From NCBI GenBank assembly GCA_002897775.1, contig BDTR01000030.1, positions 128,070 to 192,069 on the forward strand: a stretch of DNA of 64,000 bases, written 5' to 3'. The stretch comes from a bacterium BMS3Bbin08 (GTDB lineage: Bacteria; Nitrospirota; Thermodesulfovibrionia; UBA6902; BMS3Bbin08). Below are positions 4,109-35,944 of this stretch, one piece after another. Made by a program: the position numbers and the translations under genes. The notes beneath the pieces were generated by a model. That model was not told where the DNA came from. It did no database searches and worked only from the letters and a program-made list of their open reading frames with translations. Position 1 is the first letter of the stretch. Every line of letters begins with the position of its first letter.

Positions 4109-7100
4109 TCAGGGGACCAGTTCTATCAGAAGGTTTTTTAATACCCTGAAAATTCCAGGCCATTTTTCCCCCGCGAGGTCGATTTCAAAACCGCCCTGTG
4201 GAATAAATTTGACCGGTAGTTTTCTTTTTCGCGAAATTTTCAGGATCTCCTGAGGGGTTACAGATGCTTCAGGCATAAAGAGTATCTTTATCCTGCCGCG
4301 GGAATTCTGTATCCTGGTAATGGCAAGTTTTTTTGCCAGCACCTTGAGCTCCATTATCTGGAGCAGTCTGCGTGTCTCCTCAGGGGGTGTGCCGAACCTG
4401 TCCCCGAGCTCTTCAACAAGCTCTTTGAGATCCCGGCTGTCCTTTGCCAGGGCGATCTTTCTGTAGATACTTAGTCTGAGGTCAGGGTTCTCAATATACG
4501 CCTCCGGGATAATAGCCGTTGTTCTGAGTTCAAGCACAGGCTCGACCCTTGGCGGTATTTTTTCTCCCTTGAGTTCCGCCACTGCCTGTTCGAGCGTCTC
4601 AACGTACAGGTCAAAGCCAATTGCCAGTATGTGGCCTGATTGTTCAGCGCCAAGCAGGTTGCCGGCTCCCCTGATCTCAAGGTCCCTGAGCGCCAGCCTG
4701 AACCCGGCGCCCAGGTAGCCAAGTTCCTGGATCGCCTGAAGTTTTTTCCTTGCCTGCGCTGTGATCACGTCATCTCCAGGTATAAGAAAATAAGAATACG
4801 CCCTGACATTGGACCGGCCCACCCTTCCCCTCAGCTGATACAGGTCTGCCAGCCCGAACTTATCAGCCCGGTCAATGATTATTGTATTTGCGCTGGGAAT
4901 ATCAAGGCCTGAACCTATGATGGCGGTTGATACCAGTATATTGGTCTCTTTCCTGAAAAAAGACCTCATTATCTGTTCAAGTTCTTTTTCTCTCATCTGC
5001 CCGTGTGCCACAGCTACCCTGGCCCCGGGCACCAGTTCCCTTATGTAATTTGCTACACTGTAGATGTCCTGAACGCGGTTATGCACAAAGAAGGCCTGTC
5101 CGTCGCGGTCCAGTTCTTTCTGAAGTGCCTGCTCAATGATCCCCGGATCGAACCTCGCGACAAAGCTCCTGACAGCGAGCCTGTCCTCAGGCGGGGTCTC
5201 TATCACGCTCATCGCCCTTATTCCGGAGAGGGCCATGTGGAGCGTCCTTGGAATGGGTGTCGCGGAAAGCGTGATTATATCGACAGCGCTCCTGAGTGAT
5301 TTAATTTTTTCTTTATGTGTCACTCCGAACCTGTGTTCCTCGTCTATGACAAGCAGCCCCAGGTCGTAAAAACCTACGTCTTTTGCAAGGAGCCTGTGGG
5401 TTCCGATAATAATGTCTATATCTCCGTTGGCAAGGGCTCTGAGGGTCTGCTTTTGCTCTGCCCTGTTCTTAAAACGGCTGATGAAGTCGATCTTTACGGG
5501 AAAGGCTGAAAATCTTGAGGTGAACGTATCAAAATGCTGTTCAGCCAGTATTGTTGTCGGTACGAGCACAGCTGCCTGTTTTGAGTCATAAACCGCCTTA
5601 AAACACGCCCTCATTATCACCTCTGTCTTGCCGTATCCGACATCCCCGCATAACAGGGTATCCATGGGAGTCAGGCTTTCCATGCTGCGCTTTATCTCAT
5701 TTATTGCGGTTAACTGGTCAGGGGTCTCTTCATAAAGAAAAAACCCGTCAAACTCTCTGTGCAGTTCAGTGTCTTTTGAAAAGGCATGTCCTTTTGCTGT
5801 TGTGCGCCTGGCATATATGGCCAGTAGTTTCCGGGCCATGTCCTTTATCTTCTGTCTGATCTTGCGCCTTGTTCTCTGCCATGTCTTTCCCCCAAGTTTG
5901 TCCATTTTCGGCCTTACACTTTCAGGGGCGTGGTATTTCTGAACATGGTCGATGCGCTCAAGAGGGACATAGAGCCTGTCGCCGCCAAGATACTCCATAA
6001 CGATGAAGTCGCCTTCGTGGTCTTCTATTGCCTGCTTTTTAAGGCCGATGAACTTACCTATGCCGTGTTCCATGTGCACAAGATAATCACCCTCATTAAA
6101 ATCCTCTATTGATGAGATAAGCCTGGAAACCCTTGACCTCTTTATGGATTTAAACACCGGTTTTTTACCGAAGATATCTCTTTCAGCAAGAACGATGGAG
6201 TTCTGACAGACAAAGCCCCTTCCTGCTTTACCAATGGCGATTACCGGGCTTCGCGGGTGGCTGACAGCCGCCGCGCCGCTGAGGACAGGCACTTCAAGTT
6301 CCGCCTCTGAGAACAGTTCTTTCAGCCTCTTTGCCTGGCCCTCTGACGAGCAGACCATCAATATAAAATACAGTTTCCAAAGTTCCCCGACTCTTTTTAT
6401 AAAGTCTTCCAGCGAGCGTCTTTCTTCCTGCAAAAGCCCGAATCCGGCTGTGCTTCTTATATTGAGATCAAAACCTTCTCCCTTCAGGGGAAGAGAGGTA
6501 ATGTAAAAGGGCTCTTTATCCTGCAGCATGGCAGACAGGTCAGGGAACTGCCTTTTTATATCATCAGGCTCGTTTAATATCAGGGTGCTCCGGTCAAGGA
6601 CATCTATCAGGTTTGGTCCCTGATCCGGTTCAACAGCAGGGCCTATTGACACATCTTCCAACTTCTTTACTGTCCGCTGTGTATCTGTATCAAAAACCCT
6701 TAAAGACTCGATCTCATCACCAAAGAACTCCATTCTTACCGGGAGCTCCTGTTCAGGCGGGAATACATCGAGGATACCCCCCCTTATGCTCATTTCGCCC
6801 GGGCCTGATACAAGCGGGACCTGAAGATAACCATAGCTTTCAAGGGTACTGATGACAGAGTCCCTGTCAGCGGCAGAGCGGTTCATTACTTTTAACAAAG
6901 GGAACTTATCTCCTGGCCATATTGGAGACAACGCGGCCTCAACAGACGCGATGAACGCGATCTTCCCGCTGTACAGGCGCCGGAGATTTGCCAGGCGCAG
7001 AGGATCACCTTCAGGCGGTATCAGTACAGGTTCGTCACTGCCAAGCGCTTTGGACCAGAAGACCGCGTCAGAATAAAGTTCACCGGCAGCGGCCTCAGCG

Positions 7101-9925: not shown

Positions 9926-12604
9926 ATGTTCGGGATCCTGGCAAAAATAATCGGTACCAAGAACGAGAGGGAGCTCAAAAAGCTGTGGCCTGTTGTCGAG
10001 CAGATCAATTCCCTTGAGCCCTCCATGACGTCTCTTGATGATGCCGCGCTTAGGGCAAAAACAGATGATTTCCGGGGCCGGCTGCAGGGCGGTGAGAGCC
10101 TTGATGATATCCTGCCTGAGGCGTTCGCGGTTGTCAGAGAGGTTTCGCTCAGGATCCTTAACATGCGGCATTTTGATGTCCAGCTTATCGGCGGCATTAT
10201 ACTTCACAACGGCACCATAGCTGAGATGAAGACAGGTGAAGGCAAGACCCTTGCCGCTACCCTTTCAGTATACCTGAACGCTCTGGACGGCCATGGTGTT
10301 CACATTGTTACTGTAAATGATTATCTTGCCAAAAGGGACGCCCGGTGGATGGGGCCGATATACCACTTTCTCGGACTGTCGATCGGTATTATCCAGCATG
10401 ACACCTCGTTTATCTACGATACATCTTATCATTCCGATGACAAGAGGCTTCTGCATTTAAGGCCGGCTGAAAGGCAGGACGCCTACATGGCTGATATTAC
10501 GTACGGAACGAACAATGAATTCGGATTTGATTATCTCAGGGATAACATGAGGTACGACATAAAGGATTATGTCCAGAGAGAACTGAACTACGCGATCGTT
10601 GACGAAGTGGACAGCATTTTGATCGACGAGGCAAGGACACCACTTATAATCTCCGGACCTGCGGAGGAATCAACGGACAAGTACTACAAGATAGACAAGC
10701 TTGTGCCGAGATTAAAGCAAGAGACCGATTTTACGATCGATGAGAAGGCAAGGACAGTGGCGCTGACAGAAGACGGCAGTGAGAAGGCTGAAAAAATGCT
10801 GGCAGTGGGTAATCTCTATGATCCGTCCAACATTGAACTTGTGCATCATATCAATCAGGCATTAAGGGCGCACACGCTGTTTAAACGCGATGTGGATTAT
10901 ATCGTAAAGGACAACGAGGTTGTAATTGTCGATGAGTTCACAGGCCGTCTTATGCCGGGAAGGCGCTGGTCAGACGGCCTGCACCAGGCCATTGAGGCAA
11001 AGGAGGGGGTCAAGATCGCAAGCGAGAACCAGACCCTTGCCACCATCACGTTCCAGAATTATTTCAGGATGTACAACAAGCTCGCGGGCATGACCGGAAC
11101 CGCTGACACAGAGGCAGAGGAGTTCGCGAAGATATACAACCTTGACGTGTTAATTATTCCTACGAACAAACCGATGATAAGGATCGATAATTCGGATGTG
11201 ATATACAAAAATGAAAAGGCCAAGTTCAGGGCTGTTATCAAGGACATTGAAGATTGCTATAAAGGGGGACAGCCGGTTTTAGTTGGTACTATATCAATAG
11301 AAAAATCAGAACTGCTCAGTTCAATGCTGAAAAAGAAGAAGATACCCCACTCGGTCCTGAACGCGAAATACCATGAACAGGAGGCCGAGATAATCGCGCA
11401 GGCAGGCAAAAGTCAATCAGTTACGTTGGCAACGAACATGGCCGGCAGGGGAACGGATATAGTTCTTGGAGGAAATGCCGAAGGACTCGCAAAAGACATT
11501 CTTAAAAACAAGAAAGAGTACACAGAACAGGAATATGAGGACGCCCTGAACAAGGCCAGGGAGCTTTGTAAAGAAGACCGCGACAGGGTTCTGTCATCAG
11601 GCGGTCTCCACATACTGGGTACTGAAAGGCATGATGCAAGAAGAATAGATAATCAGCTCAGGGGCCGCTCCGGCCGTCAGGGGGATGCCGGCACATCAAG
11701 GTTTTATCTTTCCCTGGAAGACGACCTTATGAGGATATTCGGTTCTGAAAGGATATCCGGACTTATGGGAAGACTCGGGATGGACGAATCCCAGCCTATT
11801 GAGCATAAGTGGGTATCAAAGGCAATTGAAAATGCTCAAACAAAGGTTGAGGCTCATAATTTTGACATCAGAAAGCACCTCCTTGATTACGATGATGTCA
11901 TGAACAAGCAGAGAATAGAGATCTACTCGTTCAGGAGGGAGATACTTACCGGAGAAGGCCTGAAGGGAAAAGTCCTTGAAATGGCGATGGACGCGCTGGA
12001 TGAACTCCTGTCCATCTACTGTCCTGAAGACAGGCATGCAGAGGAATGGGACATGGATGGTCTGAAAGAGGGCCTTTTCAGGCAGTTCTCAATTGACGGG
12101 CCTGTGGAAAAAACCGGAGACATTGAAGATCTCAGGCAGAGGCTTTCAGACGACATAGAAAAGGCGTATGAAAGCAAGGAAAAAGAGGTCGGTGACGAGG
12201 CGATGAGGTACCTTGAAAAGGTTGTGATGCTGCAGGTCGTTGATTCCCAGTGGAAAGACCATCTCCTGGGCATGGACCATCTGAAGGAGGGGATCGGATT
12301 AAGGGGCTACGGCCAGAGAGATCCCCTTGTTGAATATAAAAAAGAGGCGTTTGATACCTTTTCCGATATGAGTGTGAGAATAGCTTCTGAAGTGGTGAAC
12401 AGGCTGTTCAGGATACAGATCGCAAGAGGTGAGGAGGCTCACAAGAAAATAACGCTAAGACCTGCTAAAATACGCTACAATACTGGGAGAGGGGGAGAAA
12501 AACCCCAGACCGTTGTAAAAAGCAGAAAGATAGGCAGGAATGACCCCTGCCCCTGCGGAAGCGGCAAAAAATATAAAAAATGCTGCGGTATGGTCCGGGC
12601 ATAA
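9926..12604 (+). CDS. secA: preprotein translocase ATPase SecA
   Basis: 892 aa. DEAD-like motor domains. C-terminal zinc-binding tail [14 protein letters not shown]. Confidence 0.97.
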
Positions 12605-27688: not shown

Positions 27689-28258
27689 ATGACTGAAAAG
27701 AAACAATCACCCCAACTAATCCCCCCGCACGGCGGTTACCAGGAACTCCAGTCCTACAAGATGTCGGAGATCGTGTATGACGCTACAGTAGTATTCTGCA
27801 ACCGCTTCATCAACATCCGCTCCCGCACTCATGACCAGATGGTGCAGGCGGCGCGAAGCGGGAAGCAGAATATCGCTGAGGGCAGCATGGCATCGGGCAC
27901 TTCAAAGAAGTTCGAGCTTAAGCTCGTCAGTGTGGCGCGGGCAAGCCTTGAAGAAGTGCTTCTGGATTTTAAGGACTATCTGAGGCAGAAGGGGCTTGTG
28001 CTTTGGACAAAGGATCATCCAAAGGCCGGTGAAGTGAGAAAACTCTGCTATCAAAAGAATAGGTCTTATACGACTTATAAGACCTATCTTGAGCAGTCGC
28101 CACCGGAGGTGGCGGCCAATACCATGATCTGTCTGATTCACCAGACAAACTATCTGCTGGACAAGCAGTTAAGGGCCCTTGAACAAGCCTTTCTGAAAGA
28201 AGGCGGCTTTACTGAAAGACTCTACCATGCGCGATCAGGGTCGCGCAAAAAGAAATAG
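27689..28258 (+). CDS. four-helix-bundle protein (23S rRNA intervening-sequence / Avd-like family) with a ~70-aa C-terminal extension, embedded in the cas operon
   Basis: LQSYKMSEIVYDATVVF...QMVQAARSGKQNIAEGSMASGTSKKFELKLVSVARASLEEV matches the family pattern (Y.L...NIAEG.....KEF......A.GSL.E). Its start overlaps the cas7 stop (TGAATG). cas4 starts 9 nt after its stop. Confidence 0.65.
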   Translation: MTEKKQSPQLIPPHGGYQELQSYKMSEIVYDATVVFCNRFINIRSRTHDQMVQAARSGKQNIAEGSMASGTSKKFELKLVSVARASLEEVLLDFKDYLRQKGLVLWTKDHPKAGEVRKLCYQKNRSYTTYKTYLEQSPPEVAANTMICLIHQTNYLLDKQLRALEQAFLKEGGFTERLYHARSGSRKKK

Positions 28259-28266
28259 GTCATATA

Positions 28267-28940
28267 TGAGTTATAAGCCCTATAAAGAAGATGATCTTGT
28301 TCAGCTTTCAGCCTTACAGCATTTTGCTTTCTGTGAGCGGCAGTGCGCGCTGATTCACATTGAACAGATATGGAGCGAGAATATGTTCACTGCTGAAGGA
28401 AAGATCATGCATGAAAGGGTGGATACTTCAAAGTCTGAATCACGGGGAGCAGTCCGCATGGAATTCAGTGTGCCTTTGCGTTCACTCAGACTCGGACTGA
28501 CCGGCAAGGCTGATGTTGTTGAATATCACAGGCAGGATGATGGGACATGGTTGCCCTTCCCCGTGGAATACAAACGCGGTAAACCAAAGGCGGATGATTG
28601 CGACAAGGTCCAGCTCTGCGCGCAGGCAATGTGCCTTGAAGAGATGATGAGTGTTGAAATACCGAAAGGAGCTTTGTTTTACGGTCGGATCAGGCGGAGA
28701 GAAGATGTGATCTTTGACAATGCATTACGAAAGGAAACAGAAAATACTGCGAAAAAGGTTCACGAGCTTATTGAATCACAAAAAACTCCTGGACCTGAAT
28801 ATTCAAAAAGATGCAAATCCTGTTCATTGTTTCAGCAGTGCATGCCTGAGCTGTGCTCGAAAAAGAATAAAGCAAGCAGATATCTGTCAAATATTTTAAA
28901 ACAACTGGATGCTGAGGTCTCGAATAATGGGACAGGCTGA
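28267..28940 (+). CDS. cas4: Cas4 (RecB-like nuclease with a 4-Cys cluster)
   Basis: MSYKPYKEDDLVQLSALQHFAFCERQCALIH begins with a Cys. C-terminal cysteines CKSCSLFQQC. Canonical position before cas1. Confidence 0.88.
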
Positions 28941-28962
28941 GTCAGGCGTGACAGGTTAAATC

Positions 28963-29994
28963 ATGAAAAAACATCTTAACACATTATTCGTCACCACCCA
29001 GGGGGCATATCTTTCCAAGGATGGGGAAACCGTGTCAGTTAAGGTTGATGATGAAATCCGCTTGCGTATTCCAATTCACACAATTGGCGGTATTGTATGT
29101 TTCGGTCAGGTAAGCTGCAGTCCTTTTTTAATGGGGTTTTGCGCTAAAAATAACGTTGCTGTATCATTCCTGACTGAATACGGACGCTTTCTGGCAAAGG
29201 TTCAGGGGCCGGTATCCGGGAATGTGCTGTTACGAAGGGAACAATACCGGCTTGCTGATGATGAGACTGTTTCTTTAAATATTTCCAAATCAGTTATTAC
29301 AGGCAAACTTGTTAATACCAGAACAGTATTGCAGAGGTTTTTGAGAGACCACGCCGATAAACCAAATGCAGATGCAGTGAAACAGGCGTCAAAACTTATA
29401 AGCTCAACATTAAGACGGGTATATAACGAAACCTCGCTTGACGTGATAAGAGGATTTGAAGGAGATTCGGCTCGTATCTATTTCAGTGTTTTCGATAATC
29501 TTATCACTGCCAGTAAGAAAGAATTCTTTTTCAGGGAACGTAACAGGAGGCCTCCTTTGGATAGGGTGAACTGTCTGTTGTCATTTCTGTATACGATTGT
29601 AATGCATGATGTACGCTCTGCGCTTGAGACAGCAGGGCTTGATCCGGCGGTAGGGTTCCTCCACAAAGACCGGCCGGGCAGGTATGGACTCGCGCTGGAT
29701 ATGATGGAGGAATTCAGGCCGTTTCTTGCTGACAGGCTGGTTCTTTCTCTGATAAATCTCAGTCAGGTCAATGCAAAGGGATTTGAAGAAAAAGAAAATG
29801 AAGCTGTGCTAATGGATGATGATACAAGAAAGGCTGTCCTTGTTGCATATCAGAACCGGAAACAGGATGAGATTATGCATCCATTTCTTAATGAAAAAGT
29901 GACGATTGGATTGCTTTTTCATACGCAGGCATTATTGCTTGCAAGATATTTGCGCGGCGATTTGGATGCTTATCCGCCCTTTATCTGGAAGTGA
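28963..29994 (+). CDS. cas1: Cas1 integrase, type I-C
   Basis: 343 aa with the typical Cas1 sequence. Confidence 0.92.
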   Translation: MKKHLNTLFVTTQGAYLSKDGETVSVKVDDEIRLRIPIHTIGGIVCFGQVSCSPFLMGFCAKNNVAVSFLTEYGRFLAKVQGPVSGNVLLRREQYRLADDETVSLNISKSVITGKLVNTRTVLQRFLRDHADKPNADAVKQASKLISSTLRRVYNETSLDVIRGFEGDSARIYFSVFDNLITASKKEFFFRERNRRPPLDRVNCLLSFLYTIVMHDVRSALETAGLDPAVGFLHKDRPGRYGLALDMMEEFRPFLADRLVLSLINLSQVNAKGFEEKENEAVLMDDDTRKAVLVAYQNRKQDEIMHPFLNEKVTIGLLFHTQALLLARYLRGDLDAYPPFIWK

Positions 29995-30003
29995 GGATGA
30001 AAT

Positions 30004-30291
30004 ATGTTTGTTATAGTGAGCTATGATGTTTCAACTGAAGACGGCGGACAGCGGCGCCTGAGAAGGGTCGCCAGGGCATGTCAGGATTATGGACAGAGAG
30101 TTCAGTATTCTATTTTTGAATGTATGATTAATCCGGCGCAATGGACTTTTTTAAAAGAACGATTGATCAGTGAAATTGATCCTGAAAAAGACAGTCTGAG
30201 ATTTTATTACCTCGGCTCTAACTGGAAGCGCCGCGTGGAACATGTAGGGGTCCGGAAATCGCCTGATCAGGACGGTCCGTTGATCGTGTAA
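30004..30291 (+). CDS. cas2: Cas2
   Basis: 95 aa (MFVIVSYDVSTEDGGQRRLRRVARACQDYGQRVQYSIFEC). Confidence 0.92.
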   Translation: MFVIVSYDVSTEDGGQRRLRRVARACQDYGQRVQYSIFECMINPAQWTFLKERLISEIDPEKDSLRFYYLGSNWKRRVEHVGVRKSPDQDGPLIV

Positions 30292-30474
30292 GAAGGAGTG
30301 CGAACCGTAAGTTCACATTAAGTTGCCGTAAGGTTCGCACAGGGGAAAACTGCTTATTATTCTTAATGTTAGCAGTTATGTTCTTTGACAATTGAAAGTC
30401 AGTTGCTCTTGAAAGAGGGGCTTCGCAAAAATTGTCTTTTAAGGGCAGTAAAAACAACAACTTATAAAGTAAGA

Positions 30475-31536
30475 GTCGCCCCCCATGCGGGGGCGTGGAT
30501 TGAAACCATATTAATTTGTATGGGCACGCCTGAAGGTTCGTCGCCCCCCATGCGGGGGCGTGGATTGAAACTTGCTAATACACTTTCATTTGAGATAGCG
30601 CATGGTGTCGCCCCCCATGCGGGGGCGTGGATTGAAACGCTTACCATCAATACAAACTGCTGAATATGCGTGTCGCCCCCCATGCGGGGGCGTGGATTGA
30701 AACTAGATAATCGCTGTTGGATACGCCAAGCAGTAAGTCGCCCCCCATGCGGGGGCGTGGATTGAAACTTGATAGCACTGATGGAGATACAGAAGAAACT
30801 GCGTCGCCCCCCATGCGGGGGCGTGGATTGAAACCTGTTAATATTGCAGGGATGGGTCAAATAGAAGTGGTCGCCCCCCATGCGGGGGCGTGGATTGAAA
30901 CTTAAAGAAAGTAACATATTCAAAAGAAAAAACAAGTCGCCCCCCATGCGGGGGCGTGGATTGAAACTAAAGTGTTCACGGCGTTGGCTTCACTGGACAC
31001 TAGTCGCCCCCCATGCGGGGGCGTGGATTGAAACAAATTAGTTTAACTAATGGAGGTGGCGGCATGGAAGTCGCCCCCCATGCGGGGGCGTGGATTGAAA
31101 CCCCGATTCAGGCAGAGGATTTTATCTTCGAGGCCGTCGCCCCCCATGCGGGGGCGTGGATTGAAACTATCTTCTTAGGATCATAGGTAACGCTTACACG
31201 TGTCGCCCCCCATGCGGGGGCGTGGATTGAAACAGTTTTGGGTTTTATAATTATTGATTCCATAGTCGTCGCCCCCCATGCGGGGGCGTGGATTGAAACT
31301 TGATAGCCATAGGTTTTTCGCACAATAAATAATGTCGCCCCCCATGCGGGGGCGTGGATTGAAACTGTCAATAATGTAACCAGCAATATCGGAGGTAACA
31401 TGTCGCCCCCCATGCGGGGGCGTGGATTGAAACGGCGCAAAGCTGTTCTATGTATACGACAGGACGTTGTCGCCCCCCATGCGGGGGCGTGCCTGTCTGC
31501 CGGTCTACGACTCGTATAGTAGGCAGGGATTGAAAC
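30475..31536 (+). CRISPR. CRISPR array: 16 repeats of the type I-C 32-bp repeat GTCGCCCCCCATGCGGGGGCGTGGATTGAAAC and 15 spacers of 33-35 bp. The last repeat carries a 36-bp insertion. A ~180-bp AT-rich leader lies between cas2 and repeat 1.
   Basis: Repeat starts at 30475, 30540, 30607, 30672, 30737, 30803, 30870, 30936, 31003, 31070, 31136, 31202, 31268, 31334, 31403 and 31469. Repeat 16 is split as GTCGCCCCCCATGCGGGGGCGTG, then 36 bp, then GATTGAAAC. Confidence 0.97.
31492..31527. mobile_element. 36-bp palindromic insertion (CCTGTCTGCCGGTCTACGACTCGTATAGTAGGCAGG) inside CRISPR repeat 16, between GCGTG and GATTGAAAC
   Basis: The repeat is otherwise intact on both sides. The termini CCTGyCTGCC/GGCAGG are inverted. 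The same left junction recurs at 35094. Confidence 0.7.
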
Positions 31537-31601: not shown

Positions 31602-31922
31602 ATGATGAATAAAATCGACCTGGAAATCGTTGAAAGATTTAGAGAGCTTGTATCACAGAAAGTAAAAGTACATGAACTCAGAGTGTTCGGCTCCCGCGCC
31701 AGAGGTGACGCTACTGCAGAGTCGGACCTTGATGTACTAATTGTTGTAGAACATCTTGACCATTCCATTGAAAGATATATAAGCGATTGCGCGTGGGAAG
31801 CAGGCTTCCCTGCTGATGTTGTAGTTGTTCCGATCCCCATAAGTATCGATGCTATCAAGAACAGCCCAATACGCGAATCCATCTTCATCAAGAATGTCTA
31901 TAATGAGGGAATTGCTGTATGA
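31602..31922 (+). CDS. minimal nucleotidyltransferase (MNT) of a HEPN/MNT toxin-antitoxin pair
   Basis: VFGSRARGDATAESDLDVLIVVE is the polymerase beta-type nucleotidyltransferase motif. Overlaps the HEPN gene by 4 nt. Confidence 0.8.
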   Translation: MMNKIDLEIVERFRELVSQKVKVHELRVFGSRARGDATAESDLDVLIVVEHLDHSIERYISDCAWEAGFPADVVVVPIPISIDAIKNSPIRESIFIKNVYNEGIAV

Positions 31923-32314
31923 CTGATTTGATGGCTCTGATACAATACCGGCTGAATGAGGCGGATGATTCCATAAAAGAAGCTGATGTTCTTCTAAGAG
32001 AAGGTATGAGCATGCGTGCCGTAATGAACAGGTTATATTATGCAATGTTTTACGCCGTATTGGCCCTTTTACAGAAAAAGCAAATTGCCACTTCAAAACA
32101 TTCAGGCGTAATTTCTCACTTTGATAAGGAATTTATAAAAAAAGGAATATTTGATAAAGAGCTATCTAAAGCATTGCATCGCGCGTTTGATCTCAGGCAG
32201 AAGGGTGATTATATGGAAGATGCAGAAGTAACGAAAGAAGATGTGGATGAGATGATCCCCAAAGTAGCCGATTTTGTTAGCAAAGTAAAAGATCACCTGC
32301 TTGGCAGTCATTAA
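31919..32314 (+). CDS. HEPN domain protein (partner of the MNT gene)
   Basis: 131 aa, all-alpha, with an R-x(4-6)-H-like motif (RAFDLRQKGDY). Classic MNT-HEPN operon organisation. Confidence 0.7.
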   Translation: MTDLMALIQYRLNEADDSIKEADVLLREGMSMRAVMNRLYYAMFYAVLALLQKKQIATSKHSGVISHFDKEFIKKGIFDKELSKALHRAFDLRQKGDYMEDAEVTKEDVDEMIPKVADFVSKVKDHLLGSH

Positions 32315-32403: not shown

Positions 32404-32493
32404 ATGAGCCCTGCACAAATCGTCCAAAAACTATGGAATTACTGCAATGTCCTTCGCTCTGACCGAATCCCAAGGCCGGGTGCTCAGAAGTAA
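32404..32493 (+). pseudogene. relic 5' fragment of a type I restriction-modification hsdM gene (29 codons)
   Basis: MSPAQIVQKLWNYCNVLRSDRIPRPGAQK* is the HsdM N-terminal signature (LW..C..LR). Almost identical at DNA level to the fragment at 34900. Confidence 0.7.
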
Positions 32494-32592
32494 TTTTTAC
32501 TCTACCGTTATCGTAGTATATTAAGTACGTAATATTTCAGCTATTTGATGAAATCAAGCACTTCCAATGTATCATTTTCCTTGACAATAGGT

Positions 32593-32633
32593 ATAGTATA
32601 TATGCTATATTTCATCTATTAAATGAAATATAG
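32593..32633. promoter_or_regulatory. perfect 14-bp inverted repeat, a candidate AbiEi autoregulatory operator
   Basis: ATGCTATATTTCAT-ctattaa-ATGAAATATAGCAT lies directly upstream of the abiEi start at 32649. Confidence 0.45.
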
Positions 32634-32648
32634 CATGTTAAATGTACT

Positions 32649-33455
32649 ATGGAAAAAATAACAGGCTTAGGAACAATTGACAGGGAGCGGTTAACCGCAT
32701 TAATTCGCGGTACAAAAGGCACTATTTCAGTTGCCGAGTCAGCGGATATTTTAAAGGTATCTTCAGTTAGCGCAGCGAAGATGCTTGCTCGCTGGGCGAA
32801 AAAAGGGTGGCTGTCACGTGTGCGCCGCAGTATATATATATCCATTCCTCTTGAATCCCGCACAACCGATGTTCCTCTTGAAGACCCGTGGCTTGTTGCT
32901 GATCGTTTATTCAGCCCGTGTTATATCGGGGGATGGAGCGCGGCTGAGTACTGGAATCTCACTGAACAAATCTTTCGCACTATAGCAGTAATGACAGTAC
33001 AAAAACCAAGAAATCGTACCCCTAATATCAGAGGAACAAATTTTCTGCTTCGCACTGTTCCGGAAAGAACCATGTTTGGGCTAAAATCTGCCTGGAGGGG
33101 ACAGGTGAAAGTATCAGTATCTGACGCAACCAGGACAATTCTTGATATGCTCAATGATCCGGGACTCGGTGGCGGAATACGGTCGACTGCCGATATGTTT
33201 AAAGATTATTTAAAATCGGAAAACAAAAATCTGGACATGCTCATCGACTATTCCACGCGTTTTGGAAATGGCGCGGTCTTTAAACGTCTTGGTTTTATGC
33301 TGGAGCGTTTTTCTCCGGACGAAAACACTATCATTGAAAAGTGCAAATCGCAATTAACCAAAGGGAACTCTAAACTTGATCCAAAACTCGGGGCGGACAA
33401 GCTCGTTACACGCTGGAAGTTATGGATTCCAAAAAATTGGGTAAAGGAGCAATGA
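32649..33455 (+). CDS. AbiEi-type antitoxin (type IV toxin-antitoxin; winged-HTH regulator)
   Basis: 268 aa with an N-terminal wHTH (LTALIRGTKGTISVAESADILKVSSVSAAKMLARWAKKGWLSRVRRSIY). Gene pair with the AbiEii gene downstream. Confidence 0.75.
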   Translation: MEKITGLGTIDRERLTALIRGTKGTISVAESADILKVSSVSAAKMLARWAKKGWLSRVRRSIYISIPLESRTTDVPLEDPWLVADRLFSPCYIGGWSAAEYWNLTEQIFRTIAVMTVQKPRNRTPNIRGTNFLLRTVPERTMFGLKSAWRGQVKVSVSDATRTILDMLNDPGLGGGIRSTADMFKDYLKSENKNLDMLIDYSTRFGNGAVFKRLGFMLERFSPDENTIIEKCKSQLTKGNSKLDPKLGADKLVTRWKLWIPKNWVKEQ

Positions 33456-33456
33456 C

Positions 33457-34890
33457 GTGATTGATCGCCGGGAGATCATGGAGTTTTCCAGAGAGTGGGG
33501 ACTGACTGCAAATGTCATTGAAAAAGATTATGTGCTTGGATGGGTATTGGCCGGGATTGCCGGTCATGATAAGCTGGGTTCTGAATGGGTGTTTAAAGGA
33601 GGGACCTGTTTAAAGAAGTGTTACTTTGAAACATATCGCTTTTCCGAAGACCTGGATTTTACCGTAGTGAATGCTGAGCATTTGAACGAAGAATATCTTC
33701 TGTCTTCATTTCGTGATGTCGCCGGATGGATATACGAATCTACCGGCATAGAAATCCCGGCAGATACGATCCGTTTTGAAATCTATACAAATCCACGCGG
33801 CGCAACATCTGTTCAGGGAAGGATTGGTTACCGGGGACCAATGCAGCCTGGCGGGGCCCTTCCCCGGATAAAACTGGATTTAACAAATGATGAAATATTA
33901 GTTCTTGATCCCGCTGTACGGGAAGTCCATCATCCTTATTCCGACAGACCGGAAGACGGCATCTCCGCAAGGTGCTATTCTTTCGAAGAAGTGTATGCGG
34001 AAAAAGTCAGGGCATTGGCGGAACGTGAAAGACCGCGCGATCTTTATGACGTTATACATCTTCATCGTCATGACAGTTTAAGAACTAATCGTGAGTTAAT
34101 AATGAGCACGCTTGAAAAGAAGTGTGAATTTAAAGGGATATCCGTACCGACTATAGAAGCACTGGAAAATAAACCCGAGCGTGCCGAACTGGAAGCTGAA
34201 TGGGAGAATATGCTGGCACACCAATTGCCTGTTTTACCGCCGTTTGGACAATTCTGGCAGGAACTTCCTGAGGTGTTTGAATGGTTATATCGCGCAGTTG
34301 AAAAAGTTGCGGCTCTTCCGATATCTTCCGGACGTTATGAGGTTGATGAAACATGGCATGCCCCTGCAATGGCACAAGCCTGGTATGCTAATGCACCGCT
34401 TGAAATAATACGTTTTGCAGCAGCTAACCGTTTATGTGTGAATTTAAAATATAATGGTACAAATCGTGTCATAGAGCCATATTCCCTGCGCAGGACAAAA
34501 GATGGAAATTTGTTATTATATGCCGTCAAACACAATACACACGAGGACAGATCCTATAGAATTGACAGGATACAGGGAGCAGAAGCGACCAAGACGCCAT
34601 TTACGCCTCGTTATGTAGTCGAACTGACTGCTGCCGGACCGATTTCGGCACCTCCAACAGAACGGACATCATCCGGATATGGATTAACCAATACCAGAAA
34701 ATCAAGAATCGGTCGGGGTAGGTCTATAAGCCGTTCAATGAGTTTTGGGCCTAAATATATAATCGAATGTACTTATTGCGGTAAGAAATTCAATCGAAAA
34801 AGCTATACTACCAGTCTAAATGCTCACAAGGATAAAAGCGGATATCCTTGCCCGGGAAGGATTGGGTATATGGTAGATACGAAGTATTAG
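33457..34890 (+). CDS. AbiEii/AbiGii-family nucleotidyltransferase toxin fused to a C-terminal WYL-like domain and a zinc ribbon
   Basis: N-terminus: DUF1814/AbiEii motifs (WVFKGGTCLKKCYFETYRFSEDLDFTVV). Residues ~310-375: LKYNGTNRVIEPYSLRRTKDGNLLLYAVKHNTHEDRSYRIDRI matches the WYL-domain pattern. C-terminus: CTYCGKKF...CPGRIGY. GTG start at 33457 with AAGGAG 7 nt upstream. Confidence 0.7.
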   Translation: MIDRREIMEFSREWGLTANVIEKDYVLGWVLAGIAGHDKLGSEWVFKGGTCLKKCYFETYRFSEDLDFTVVNAEHLNEEYLLSSFRDVAGWIYESTGIEIPADTIRFEIYTNPRGATSVQGRIGYRGPMQPGGALPRIKLDLTNDEILVLDPAVREVHHPYSDRPEDGISARCYSFEEVYAEKVRALAERERPRDLYDVIHLHRHDSLRTNRELIMSTLEKKCEFKGISVPTIEALENKPERAELEAEWENMLAHQLPVLPPFGQFWQELPEVFEWLYRAVEKVAALPISSGRYEVDETWHAPAMAQAWYANAPLEIIRFAAANRLCVNLKYNGTNRVIEPYSLRRTKDGNLLLYAVKHNTHEDRSYRIDRIQGAEATKTPFTPRYVVELTAAGPISAPPTERTSSGYGLTNTRKSRIGRGRSISRSMSFGPKYIIECTYCGKKFNRKSYTTSLNAHKDKSGYPCPGRIGYMVDTKY

Positions 34891-34899
34891 AACAATAAA

Positions 34900-35060
34900 A
34901 TGAGCCCAGCACAAATCGTCCAAAAACTCTGAAATTACTGCAACGTCCTTCGTGACGACGGAATGAGCTGCGGAGATTATGTGGAACAGCTTACGTATCT
35001 GCTGTTTCTCAAGATGGCTGATGAGAGGGCTAAACCGCCATATAATCAACCGACTCAGTA
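34900..35060 (+). pseudogene. second relic hsdM 5' fragment (~53 codons) with a premature stop (TGG to TGA at codon 11), cut off by a CRISPR repeat remnant
   Basis: MSPAQIVQKL*NYCNVLRDDGMSCGDYVEQLTYLLFLKMADERAKPPYNQPTQ* has the HsdM N-terminal domain signature. No intact hsdM follows. Confidence 0.7.
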
Positions 35061-35070
35061 AATAGATTTA

Positions 35071-35093
35071 GTTGCCCCCCATGCGGGGGCGTG
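35071..35093 (+). repeat. CRISPR repeat 5' portion (GTTGCCCCCCATGCGGGGGCGTG) joined directly to CCTGCCTGCCAGTCTACGACT...
   Basis: 23 of 23 positions match the repeat with one mismatch. It breaks at the same position as repeat 16, and the adjoining sequence matches the left end of the 36-bp insertion. Confidence 0.75.
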
Positions 35094-35316
35094 CCTGCCT
35101 GCCAGTCTACGACTGAGAAAAATCCCGCCTTCAGAAGATAATGCTGTGAGATCGATAAATAAAGCTGAACACTGGTTAAAAACAAAGCAATGGTGCCGGT
35201 AACTGATGTGGACTACTGACACATATAAAAGAGAGGGTATTTGTTAATTTTGACAAACTATAATAATTAAGTTATACTTTAATTAAGAAGTAAAACAAAT
35301 TTATGGAGGTAAAACT

Positions 35317-35604
35317 ATGCCTACAGTAACTGTATCATCAAAAGGGCAGATTGTCATGCCAAAAAAGATACGGGATGCCCTTGGCATAAAGCCGAAACAG
35401 AAGGTATTTTTGAAAGTTGTACAAGATCATGCTGAAATTATACCGCTGCCGGAAAATCCTGCTCAGGCATTCTGCGGTATTTTCAAAAAAGGTTCATCAC
35501 TGACAAAATCACTGCTGAAGGATCGAAAGGAGGAAGCAAAACTTGAAGAGAAAAATATTGCTCGATTCTTACGCGCTTCTGGCATATCTAAAAAAAGAAG
35601 ATAA
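35317..35604 (+). CDS. vapB: AbrB/MazE/SpoVT-family antitoxin (VapB-like)
   Basis: MPTVTVSSKGQIVMPKKIRDALGIKPKQKVFL is the swapped-hairpin AbrB-type DNA-binding domain. Lies upstream of the PIN gene and overlaps it in another frame. Confidence 0.7.
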   Translation: MPTVTVSSKGQIVMPKKIRDALGIKPKQKVFLKVVQDHAEIIPLPENPAQAFCGIFKKGSSLTKSLLKDRKEEAKLEEKNIARFLRASGISKKRR

Positions 35605-35944
35605 CTACAGGAAAGTGATGGAATTATTAAATTCGGCGCCTGAAGATTGTTCTATTATAATGAATGAAATCAATGCGGGAGAAAGTTACTATATTATTGC
35701 CAGAGAAAGAGGAATCAGGCAAGCCGATTATTTCATTGAAACCATTCTTCCTAACCTTCCTATAGACATTATATCCAATTCATTCGACCAGATCATAGAT
35801 GCTTCCAGAATCAAAGTTGACCATTCCATTTCTTATGCTGACTGTTTTGTTGTCGCTACAGCCGTCCGTGAAAAAGCCGTGATTGTTACAGGCGATCCTG
35901 ATTTTAAGCGAGTTAAAGATATTGTGGATGTAGAATGGATATAG
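35543..35944 (+). CDS. vapC: PIN-domain ribonuclease toxin (VapC-like)
   Basis: KILLDSYALLAY near the N-terminus carries the first acidic PIN residue. CFVVATAVREKAVIVTGDPDF carries the later one. The start assignment is uncertain; this one overlaps vapB by about 60 nt. Confidence 0.7.
   Translation: MKRKILLDSYALLAYLKKEDNYRKVMELLNSAPEDCSIIMNEINAGESYYIIARERGIRQADYFIETILPNLPIDIISNSFDQIIDASRIKVDHSISYADCFVVATAVREKAVIVTGDPDFKRVKDIVDVEWI

Follow-up and report, generated by a model that had tools for sequence, protein, structure and literature searches.

In a 64,000-nucleotide stretch of the bacterium BMS3Bbin08 (Nitrospirota; contig BDTR01000030.1; hereafter the window), we identified a two-gene cassette in which an AbiEii nucleotidyltransferase (NTase) toxin extends, beyond its enzymatic core, into a WYL domain, a basic linker, and a zinc finger (Table 1). 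We hold with middling confidence that this cassette is an intact AbiE toxin–antitoxin (TA)/abortive-infection module of a WYL-bearing AbiEii subfamily, in which the basic tail would be a probable nucleic-acid binder and, in the interpretation we favor, a sensor.

Table 1 Features of the abiE cassette and its immediate surroundings (coordinates in the window).
Feature	Coordinates	Strand	Evidence or description
Second hsdM 5′ fragment, preceding the abiE cassette	32404..32468	+	Repeat D4; translation MSPAQIVQKLWNYCNVLR
Distal operator-like imperfect palindrome	32516..32571	.	Core TTTCA-N9-TGAAA; upstream of abiEi
Proximal operator-like palindrome	32591..32646	.	Perfect 14-nt arms ATGCTATATTTCAT / ATGAAATATAGCAT; 3 nt before the abiEi ATG
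abiEi, antitoxin/repressor, 268 aa	32649..33455	+	Pfam AbiEi_4 wHTH; PADLOC
abiEii–WYL–zinc-finger toxin gene	33457..34890	+	477 aa; GTG 1 base past the abiEi stop
NTase (AbiEii/DUF1814) domain, residues 1–285	33457..34311	+	Pfam, Foldseek, invariant motifs
WYL domain, residues 314–385	34396..34611	+	One helix and five strands; Pfam, AlphaFold, Foldseek
Disordered basic Ser/Thr/Gly/Pro-rich linker, residues 394–430	34636..34746	+	pLDDT <50
C2HC zinc finger, residues 431–477	34747..34887	+	Predicted ligands C438, C441, H457, C465
hsdM 5′-end remnant, 50 codons, in-frame TGA	34900..35049	+	Starts 10 nt past the toxin stop

Domain architecture of the toxin

The toxin gene coincides exactly with a 477-aa, GTG-initiated frame in the ORF listing, and this start is supported both by a Shine-Dalgarno sequence (AAGGAG) 7 nt upstream, within the final abiEi codons, and by the conservation of residues 2–7 in homologs with the same start position. 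The encoded protein, identical to BMS3Abin10_01198, matched no NCBIfam model; the entry “Hypothetical protein BMS3Abin10_01198” can be re-annotated as a WYL-subfamily AbiEii toxin with AbiEi as its partner. The possibility that the long frame is an artefact, i.e., two genes fused in reading, was rejected: 98 homologs are colinear with it over 470–490 aa, and a single frame holds the complete motif in 72 of the 84 places that were compared (the window and 83 related loci).

A sequence-only reading of this gene had proposed an AbiEii toxin fused to a WYL-like domain (segment LKYNGTNRVIEPYSLRRTKDGNLLLYAVKHNTHEDRSYRIDRI, residues 330–372) and a C-terminal zinc ribbon (CTYCGKKF, residues 438–445, followed by CPG, 465–467). 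Pfam, AlphaFold, Foldseek, and the homolog alignment together bear out an AbiEii NTase, confirm the WYL fold as genuine, and place a zinc-binding motif at the C terminus. The same reading took ~300 aa as the norm for AbiEii, and this fits the PADLOC AbiEii profiles, which span 203–324 positions among the best 25 of 34 matched; the single outlier among these, with 396 positions, is the model that fits the window toxin (PDLC02317, toxin residues 1–398, E = 6.5e-191). The next-best PADLOC AbiEii model, a tail-less one of 260 positions, still fits residues 1–275 (E = 8e-73), while the matching AbiEi models are nearly equal in length (263 vs 252 positions), so that the antitoxin gained no domain. 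Judged from these profiles, the tail would be an add-on to a self-sufficient enzyme, as the tail-less model fits the core and AbiEi is roughly unchanged in length.

The enzymatic core clearly belongs to the AbiEii/DUF1814/COG2253 NTases. Pfam AbiEii (PF08843) aligns to residues 30–268 with E = 1.2e-40 (140.4 bits vs a cut-off of 22.5) and was matched in all 98 homologs. NTase motifs I–IV, defined as in PMC3985639, which includes the signature hG[GS]x15DhD, correspond to K47-G48-G49 (I), R61-x-S63-x-D65-x-D67 (II), K183/R190 (III), and D195/D198 (IV), and the signature itself is present as K47-G48-G49, 15 residues, then D65-L66-D67. Across 83 homologs, K47, G48, G49, S63, D67, K183, R190, D195, and D198 are invariant, and R61 and D65 are kept in 82. 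By fold, the toxin matched 6j7q (MenT3/TglT, E = 1e-6), 6y56 (MenT4, 3e-6), 4o8s (JHP933, 5e-6), and 8an5 (MenT1, 3e-4), with 14–18% sequence identity in the alignments to MenT-type structures; the full-length sequence profile, compared with PDB chains, yielded a weak match to MenT4 alone (E = 1e-3). The motif-based register places the invariant S63 opposite T65 of Streptococcus agalactiae AbiEii (R63-x-T65-x-D67-x-D69), and the motif II phospho-acceptors of characterized relatives are this T65 and S78 of MenT3. On alignment, S63 is the serine that matches the known autophosphorylation site.

The WYL assignment held up under profile and structure searches alike. PF13280 matched residues 315–376 (E = 4.6e-6, 27.0 bits vs a cut-off of 21.8) and, when homologs were scanned singly, all 98 of them (best E = 3e-10), so that the match in the window is not due to chance. 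The AlphaFold model shows a helix (315–323) followed by a five-stranded barrel (326–332, 335–347, 352–358, 364–368, and 372–381) at pLDDT ~90, and the 27 best Foldseek matches of this region in the PDB are all WYL proteins, led by PafBC, DriD, BrxR, and CapW (rmsd ~2 Å over 74–81 columns), with ssDNA-bound structures among them. A sequence profile of the WYL region searched against PDB chains reached no solved WYL protein, so the link between the toxin and this family is based on the Pfam HMM and the fold. In conservation, the domain is on a par with the enzyme core (mean 0.72 vs 0.70), and S343, R345, R365, R368, and R371 are each kept in ≥94% of 83 homologs.

Beyond the WYL domain, the linker is poorly conserved (mean column conservation 0.21), varies from 23 to 41 residues, and is 19% K or R. 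The finger region folds into three strands in the AlphaFold model (pLDDT 85–90). All four predicted zinc ligands are invariant in the 98 homologs, and in a second set of 83 toxins the module is kept in 74, with C438, C441, and H457 in 74/74 and C465 in 73/74. The finger is absent, however, from ~10% of the 84 places compared, from which we infer that it is an optional add-on. The proposed label of “zinc ribbon” had to be given up: the metal site reads CxxC-x15-H-x7-C, with one CxxC knuckle instead of the two needed, and Zn_ribbon profiles match 1–2 of the 98 homologs. A zf-BED profile aligns to residues 433–457 with 19.4 bits, just under its cut-off of 20.6; at E < 0.01 it matched 16 of the 98 homologs, with a best value of 7e-5. 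A Foldseek search returned no match to the finger. By its spacing, the metal site would be a C2HC finger that is weakly BED-like.

Charge is unevenly distributed along the protein. Net charges are −16 for the NTase domain, +5 for the WYL domain, and +6 each for linker and finger, i.e., +17 for the tail as a whole, and the family medians are similar (−13, +3, +5, and +6, respectively). Because it is strongly basic, the C-terminal module probably binds single-stranded nucleic acid.

The antitoxin gene and its operators

The product of abiEi matches the Pfam AbiEi_4 wHTH domain (31.6 bits vs a cut-off of 25) and, over the full profile length, the PADLOC AbiEi model PDLC02271 (E = 3.7e-113). In 84/84 places, the toxin gene is immediately preceded by a homolog of abiEi. 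The two genes, with their 1-nt gap and Shine-Dalgarno sequence, are by this layout translationally coupled.

Upstream of abiEi, the two operator-like palindromes fall within a 56-nt direct repeat (D1, spacing 75) accompanied by an inverted repeat (I1). A relaxed core, TTCA-N7–11-TGAA, is found in 29 of 77 related loci compared with 1.5% of shuffles, its sites clustering at about −112 and −38 relative to the abiEi start, and a palindrome that agrees with the proximal one in position and core occurs in related loci L004, L012, L027, L031, and L040. The exact form TTTCA-N-TGAAA was considered as a conserved operator and rejected (3 of 77 loci), conservation being that of the relaxed core.

One possibility is that the tail serves to regulate the operon: through its WYL domain and BED-like finger, the toxin would join AbiEi on the operator, or these parts would mediate oligomerization or antitoxin binding, so that transcription would be tuned and toxin activity would not. 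BED fingers are modules that bind DNA, and the finger is weakly similar to them; the two operator-like sites, 74–75 bp apart, would suit a bridging complex; and the pTM of the full-length AlphaFold model (0.76) is a hint of docking between the tail domains and the core. Yet the BED match is sub-threshold in the window toxin and confined to the minority of homologs given above, natural variants dispense with the finger, and the S. agalactiae toxin left repression unaffected, as summarized in PMC3985639. On this evidence, we regard a role in operon regulation as improbable.

Genomic surroundings

The abiE cassette of the window is located in a CRISPR/TA island, and in several related loci it sits within or beside type I restriction-modification operons. 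Fragments of hsdM lie here on both sides. The remnant that follows the toxin gene is 88% identical to the HsdM of related locus L003 (tblastn) and matches Pfam HsdM_N (29.8 bits), its first part (34900–34964) is 86% identical to the upstream fragment at 32404–32468, and the same place is taken by hsdM, whole or as a 5′ remnant, in 9 of 83 related loci (L002, L003, L006, L010, L012, L014, L015, L032, and L040).

These hsdM pieces, one of them with an in-frame stop, and a duplicated, degenerate terminal CRISPR repeat at the flank of the island could be taken to mean that the cassette is itself a decaying, non-functional relic in a scrambled island. Both ORFs are nevertheless full length and colinear with the 98 homologs, the catalytic and zinc-binding residues are all intact, and so are the Shine-Dalgarno sequence and operator palindromes, which makes a relic very improbable.

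Distribution and earlier descriptions of the fusion

At least 593 species-representative genomes, spread over many phyla, carry relatives. The search of representative clusters also gave short matches of 94–350 aa, which could be stand-alone WYL-finger proteins; since most of them start mid-domain, short contigs that yield only fragments seem to be their source. No copy of the toxin tail was found in the phage genomes searched, and the phage WYL proteins in BFVD are small and stand-alone only.

The sequence-only reading had presented the fusion as a departure from ordinary AbiEii toxins. The fusion is real, but it is at the same time a known C-terminal variant of AbiEii: WYL domains fused to AbiGII-like DUF1814 enzymes were listed in 2014 (Makarova, Anantharaman, Grishin, Koonin, and Aravind, PMC4012209), and a PADLOC subfamily model covers the WYL part, so that the architecture is not new. 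The passage in PMC4012209 suggests that WYL senses a negatively charged ligand and so regulates the Abi system, and it names the WYL-DUF1814 fusion without mention of a C-terminal finger such as the window toxin has. PDLC02317, likewise, includes the WYL part but ends short of both linker and C2HC finger. Searches of the literature on AbiEii with a WYL domain or zinc finger turned up no experiments on the fusion.

Possible roles of the basic tail

By analogy with S. agalactiae AbiEii and with MenT1, MenT3, and MenT4, the free toxin would add nucleotides to tRNA 3′ ends and thereby arrest translation. As in characterized relatives, AbiEi would induce autophosphorylation of the motif II serine, S63, and so silence the toxin, and would additionally repress the operon. 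In the interpretation we favor, the tail would act as a built-in sensor for ssDNA or ssRNA fragments arising from infection, restriction, or DNA damage, and fragment binding would either switch the toxin on or shield it from AbiEi-induced inactivation. The analogy is to the regulators CapW, BrxR, DriD, and PafBC, which are switched by ssDNA; in CapW, DriD, and PafBC, ssDNA is the signal that the WYL domain binds (PMC11662680). The charge split, the conservation of the WYL domain, the conserved S343/arginine set, and the existence of ssDNA-reading WYL regulators may all be counted in favor of nucleic-acid binding. The genomic setting, next to or within type I restriction-modification operons in several loci and in a CRISPR/TA island here, and the earlier proposal of ligand sensing for this fusion (PMC4012209) are further points for the favored interpretation as a whole. 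Conversely, the WCX domain, which completes the ligand pocket of those regulators, is absent from the toxin, and in the tested case of a WYL domain on an enzyme, the Thermotoga elfii PIF1 helicase, the domain is an accessory ssDNA-binding module (bioRxiv 10.1101/163188) rather than a switch.

In a rival interpretation, the tail would be a substrate clamp, in which the WYL domain, basic linker, and finger would bring an RNA substrate (a tRNA, with its single-stranded 3′ end, or another RNA) to the unusually acidic core and set target specificity or affinity, with no sensing of infection. Several observations agree with this: charge is divided between an acidic core and a basic tail, WYL domains are described as binding single-stranded nucleic acid (and in PIF1 as an accessory substrate-binding module), MenT and AbiEii toxins act on tRNA 3′ ends, and the WYL domain is conserved like the core, as contact with a conserved host molecule would predict. 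Against it, a closely related sister AbiEii subfamily of ~260 residues has no tail, characterized AbiEii and MenT toxins function tail-less, and the finger is missing from about a tenth of loci. Substrate recruitment of this kind fits the data about as well as ligand gating, the activity that the sequence-only reading had proposed for the fusion; taken by itself, we consider it possible but somewhat unlikely.

Sensing can also be framed in its strictest form, with the toxin itself as the infection sensor. Specifically, short ssDNA or ssRNA, such as a neighboring type I restriction system or RecBCD could produce in degrading phage DNA, would bind the tail and free the toxin from AbiEi-induced autophosphorylation, such that restriction and abortive infection would operate in series. 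We put this forward tentatively, as a rather doubtful proposal. What is at stake is the release of AbiE/MenT-type toxins during infection, the best-studied AbiE being without a phage phenotype in E. coli. If true, it would be the first demonstration of a WYL domain acting as the direct switch of an enzyme effector, as opposed to a transcription factor, and an AbiE system would gain the activation signal that has long been missing. Being very widespread, with a WYL domain borne on the toxin itself and of a type that reads ssDNA as a signal of damage or infection in CapW, DriD, and PafBC, the subfamily offers a handy test system for a direct molecular trigger.

Comparison with known systems

The cassette shares its gene order and a COG5340-type wHTH antitoxin with S. 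agalactiae AbiEi-AbiEii and Mycobacterium tuberculosis MenA-MenT, and its toxin shares with S. agalactiae AbiEii and MenT the NTase motifs I–IV and a Ser/Thr at the motif II phospho-acceptor position. In contrast to the 477 aa of the window toxin, the S. agalactiae AbiEii and MenT toxins have ~290–300 aa (MenT1 ~190) and lack the WYL domain, linker, and finger. The operators differ as well, the widely spaced pair of palindromes in the window contrasting with adjacent 23-3-23 repeats (PMC3985639). S. agalactiae AbiE gave zero protection against 32 coliphages, hence a defense role is not assured for every AbiE.

With CapW, BrxR, DriD, and PafBC, the toxin has in common the WYL barrel and the conserved R-x-[FY]-R-x-D-R-I motif with which the domain ends. 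It falls outside the wHTH-WYL-WCX family, however, sharing the WYL domain alone: an NTase stands at its N terminus, and linker and finger follow the WYL domain. Where those regulators combine an HTH and a WCX domain with DNA binding as output, the window toxin has neither domain and its output is an enzyme. In CapW and BrxR, the RWHVR arginines flank the WYL motif and contact ssDNA, whereas the equivalents in the toxin would be N351 and Y355 in a tentative register taken from the R-x-Y-R-x-D-R-I spacing; since this arginine pair is apparently replaced, the mode of ssDNA binding may differ in the toxin. WYL domains occur on other nucleic-acid enzymes too (PIF1, Cas3-WYL), but the partner enzyme differs and neither is the toxin of a TA pair. 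The Cas13d accessory protein WYL1 is a further combination of a WYL domain with a nucleic-acid enzyme, and again one distinct from a TA toxin.

Domain content, catalytic core and predicted structure of the toxin

The TGA stop of abiEi ends one base ahead of the toxin's GTG, and the final codons of abiEi hold a Shine-Dalgarno sequence, AAGGAG, 7 nt 5' of that GTG. Together with the conservation of residues 2-7 in homologs sharing the same start point, this position makes the GTG start credible. The product is identical to a protein database entry, hypothetical protein BMS3Abin10_01198 [bacterium BMS3Abin10]. The sequence-only reading had described this gene as an AbiEii toxin fused to a WYL-like domain and a zinc ribbon, and the ORF and all the strings it quoted are present. 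Scanned singly, all 98 homologs matched both AbiEii and WYL, and 16 of them matched zf-BED at E < 0.01.

Features of the abiE cassette and its surroundings (nucleotides of the window unless residues are given)
Feature	Position	Details
cas4, cas1, cas2	28227-30291	
CRISPR array	30473-31500	16 repeats
MNT/HEPN pair	31602-31922 and 31919-32314	overlapping stop/start codons
hsdM 5' fragment, upstream copy	32404-32468	65 nt, 86% identity to 34900-34964
Distal imperfect palindrome	32516-32571	upstream of abiEi; related to the proximal one, 75 nt apart
Proximal imperfect palindrome	32591-32646	upstream of abiEi; perfect 14-nt arms
abiEi	32649-33455	268 aa; AbiEi_4 wHTH profile above threshold (Pfam)
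abiEii-WYL-zinc-finger toxin ORF	33457..34890 (+)	GTG start, 477 codons
AbiEii (PF08843)	residues 30-268	Pfam, E=1.2e-40
WYL (PF13280)	residues 315-376	Pfam, E=4.6e-6, 27.0 bits (curated cut-off 21.8)
BED zinc finger	residues 433-457	Pfam, 19.4 bits, slightly under cut-off 20.6
hsdM 5' fragment, downstream copy	34900-35049	50 codons, in-frame TGA; HsdM_N 29.8 bits
MazE/AbrB-type antitoxin and PIN-domain toxin pair	35317-35604 and 35543-35944	

According to Dy et al. (PMC3985639), AbiEii toxins follow the pattern hG[G/S]x15DhD, with a K/R at motif III and a D at motif IV. In the toxin core, fifteen residues separate K47-G48-G49 from D65-L66-D67, motif III has K183 and R190, and motif IV has D195 and D198. 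R61 and D65 are each present in 82 of 83 homologs, and the other motif residues are invariant in all 83. According to two sources (bioRxiv 10.64898/2026.01.19.700257; PMC3985639), S. agalactiae AbiEii is phosphorylated at T65, within R63-x-T65-x-D67-x-D69, when AbiEi is present, and this T65 is equivalent to MenT1 T39 and MenT3 S78. The register of T65 is taken in the toxin by S63, in R61-x-S63-x-D65-x-D67, which is invariant in the 83 homologs. With intact motifs and this serine, the toxin is equipped for catalysis and for neutralisation in the known mode, and presumably undergoes both.

An alignment of 98 sequences served to build two AlphaFold2 models, one of the C-terminal fragment and one of the full-length protein (mean pLDDT 79.8, pTM 0.76). 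The fragment was predicted to consist of a helix and five strands (pLDDT about 90), a ~37-residue segment with pLDDT <50, and a final three-stranded module (pLDDT about 90); the same elements occupy residues 315-381, 394-430 and 433-476 of the full-length model. When the C-terminal model was compared with the PDB by Foldseek, the first 27 places all went to WYL proteins, namely PafBC (6sj9), DriD (7tzv/8tp8/9cu3, ssDNA-bound forms), BrxR (7qfz/7t8k) and CapW (7tb5/9c5g), at an rmsd of about 2 Å across 74-81 columns. Sm/SH3-like barrels of other kinds, Hfq and Tudor among them, stood lower in the list, and the zinc-finger part had no fold match in this search. The full model retrieved MenT3/TglT (6j7q), MenT4 (6y56), JHP933 (4o8s) and MenT1 (8an5), followed by the same WYL proteins. 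The fold matches thus run counter to the refuting outcome named in the sequence-only reading, a tail lacking any WYL or SH3-like barrel; the WYL domain is real.

The C-terminal Cys motif also stands, with invariant ligands: C438, C441, H457 and C465 are all conserved in the 98 homologs. Of 83 toxins in another set with greater divergence, 74 kept the zinc-motif part, with C438, C441 and H457 in all 74 and C465 in 73. The label "ribbon" is imprecise, however, since a ribbon has two CxxC knuckles and the spacing here is CxxC-x15-H-x7-C, a predicted C2HC finger whose sole profile similarity is weak and BED-like. The motif is complete and in frame in 72 of the 84 places compared. Eight loci (L031, L034, L035, L036, L039, L040, L055 and L068) encode toxins 394-424 aa long, in which the WYL domain is retained and the chain stops within the linker, i.e., natural finger-less forms. 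In L008 and L033 the tail looks frameshifted, in L027 the motif is kept and the C-terminal end is divergent, and the toxin gene of L054 is interrupted after 42 codons.

A widespread and catalogued fusion

The survey proposed in the sequence-only reading revealed a widespread architecture. In a 5.8-billion-protein collection, the 120 best matches to the toxin were all 455-494 aa long with 65-79% identity; nearly all carried PF08843 and PF13280 in precomputed annotation, and their source names pointed to Planctomycetes, Thermodesulfovibrionales, Spirochaetota, Deltaproteobacteria and Pseudomonadota. The C-terminal 184 residues used as query returned 884 clusters (50% identity) at E<=1e-3 and 470 at E<=1e-10, the module lying at about residues 295-477 of full-length matches. 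With each species represented by a single genome, a scan gave relatives in at least 593 genomes, the best 80 of them from Nitrospirota, Desulfobacterota, alpha-, beta- and gamma-proteobacteria, Acidobacteriota, Atribacterota, WOR-3, Elusimicrobia and Latescibacterota. The tail was also found on six plasmids, each time within a CDS annotated as AbiEii/AbiGii toxin, and a search of phage genomes yielded no copy. On Sinorhizobium mexicanum plasmid pEmeITTGR7a (locus L084, 2637-4031), a 464-aa AbiEii has a tail 29% identical to the window toxin's and a WYL domain no longer detected by Pfam; no abiEi appears upstream in the plasmid's gene table, itself incomplete. This suggests an older branch of the fusion, one that has diverged further.

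The sequence-only reading holds in part: the AbiEii-WYL architecture had been read correctly, but it is not new, and the suggested ligand gating of the toxin is a hypothesis. The relevant passage of a 2014 CARF/WYL survey lists WYL in combination with an "AbiGII-like nucleotidyltransferase (DUF1814)", and puts forward a role for WYL in sensing ligands of negative charge, by which it would regulate the AbiG abortive-infection system among others (PMC4012209). The PADLOC model PDLC02317 (396 positions) matches toxin residues 1-398 (E=6.5e-191) and therefore covers the core and the WYL domain, ending ahead of the linker and C2HC finger. These last two elements are mentioned neither in the survey's passage on the fusion nor in full-text searches. 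Full-text literature searches retrieved no experimental studies of the fusion, and recent AbiEii and MenT literature makes no mention of WYL. The architecture is thus known, catalogued and uncharacterised. The window toxin is unexceptional within a large AbiEii-WYL subfamily and is mainly useful as a tractable system for seeking the activation signal of AbiE toxins.

Genomic context of the cassette

The cassette is located in a defence and toxin-antitoxin island. Between the CRISPR array and abiE lies a further toxin-antitoxin module, an MNT (minimal nucleotidyltransferase)/HEPN pair. The last repeat of the array is degenerate, and a 44-nt stretch made up of this repeat and about 20 nt of trailer (31469-31512) recurs at 35071-35114 (93% identity). 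The two copies bracket a 3.56-kb segment with the MNT/HEPN and abiE modules, as though these toxin-antitoxin genes had entered the array's trailer end by insertion or recombination. Just past the duplicated end sits the MazE-like/PIN pair, with a strong sigma-70-like promoter match (11/12) at 35250-35278; thiamine-biosynthesis-like ORFs, recognised by translations only, follow the pair. Directly upstream of cas4, and overlapping its start, a 189-aa ORF (27689-28258) showed sub-threshold similarity to the 23S rRNA-intervening-sequence protein family (25.6 bits, cut-off 33.8).

Nine related loci have hsdM, or what is left of its 5' end, beginning at most about 50 nt past the toxin stop. A full hsdM directly follows the cassette in L003, L006, L010, L015 and L032, and a 5' remnant does so in L002, L012, L014, L040 and the window. 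Only the window has an upstream hsdM copy as well, and its two copies bracket abiE alone, inside the larger CRISPR-end bracket. These paired fragments suggest that the 5' part of an hsdM gene moved along with the cassette. In the complete type I R-M operon of L003, an unannotated 263-aa ORF (6137-6928) lies between hsdS and abiEi, and a RAMA-domain protein (10992-11714) follows hsdM.

Possible role of the tail

The tail is an add-on to a self-sufficient enzyme, since the second-best PADLOC AbiEii model (260 positions) still matches toxin residues 1-275 (E=8e-73). The corresponding AbiEi models are nearly equal in length (263 vs 252 positions), so the antitoxin has gained no counter-domain. WYL is conserved to the same degree as the core: mean top-residue frequency was 0.72 for WYL, 0.70 for the core and 0.21 for the linker, the latter being 23 to 41 residues long and not conserved in sequence. 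Net charge in the window toxin was -16 for the core, +5 for WYL, +6 for the linker and +6 for the finger (family medians -13, +3, +5 and +6). The WYL domains studied in CapW, DriD, PafBC and PIF1 bind ssDNA, and this binding is the switch in the regulators CapW, DriD and PafBC; one WYL regulator reportedly perceives c-di-GMP (PMC11880434). Taken together, the add-on nature, WYL conservation, charge split and these precedents make the tail most likely a module binding single-stranded nucleic acid.

We favour a sensor role for this module, and give the statement as a whole, its well-supported parts included, about an even chance. Specifically, ssDNA or ssRNA arising during infection, restriction or DNA damage would activate the toxin, or protect it from AbiEi-induced phosphorylation. 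Such a role fits both the original proposal in the 2014 survey's passage (PMC4012209) and the fact that in type I R-M operons the cassette is often found immediately 5' of hsdM. The PIF1 precedent and the high WYL conservation fit equally well with the main rival, a substrate clamp in which the tail brings tRNA to the acidic core, which we consider somewhat unlikely. What speaks against a CapW-like binding mode is that the arginines flanking the WYL motif in CapW/BrxR apparently correspond to N351 and Y355, in a tentative register, and that the toxin, unlike CapW/BrxR, has no WCX domain. Searching BFVD with the C-terminal model returned small stand-alone WYL proteins of phages, among them Bacillus phage G (Gp296), Rhizobium phage RHph_TM30 and Vibrio phage Vp_R1; phage WYL proteins might act as decoys for WYL ligands.

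AbiEi and its putative operator

An AbiEi homolog lies directly upstream of the toxin gene in all 84 places (83 related loci and the window), and the window's abiEi product matches the PADLOC AbiEi profile over its full length (E=3.7e-113). A relaxed core, TTCA-N7-11-TGAA, was present in 29 of 77 upstream regions of related loci, compared to 1.5% of shuffles, and the sites concentrate sharply around two points, about -38 and about -112 relative to the abiEi start. The twin palindromes carrying this core are 74-75 bp apart and look like a conserved two-site operator, likely that of AbiEi. This putative operator is consistent with the autoregulation of S. agalactiae AbiEi, although its sites lie far apart here and the repeats described in S. 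agalactiae are adjacent, in a 23-3-23 arrangement (PMC3985639).
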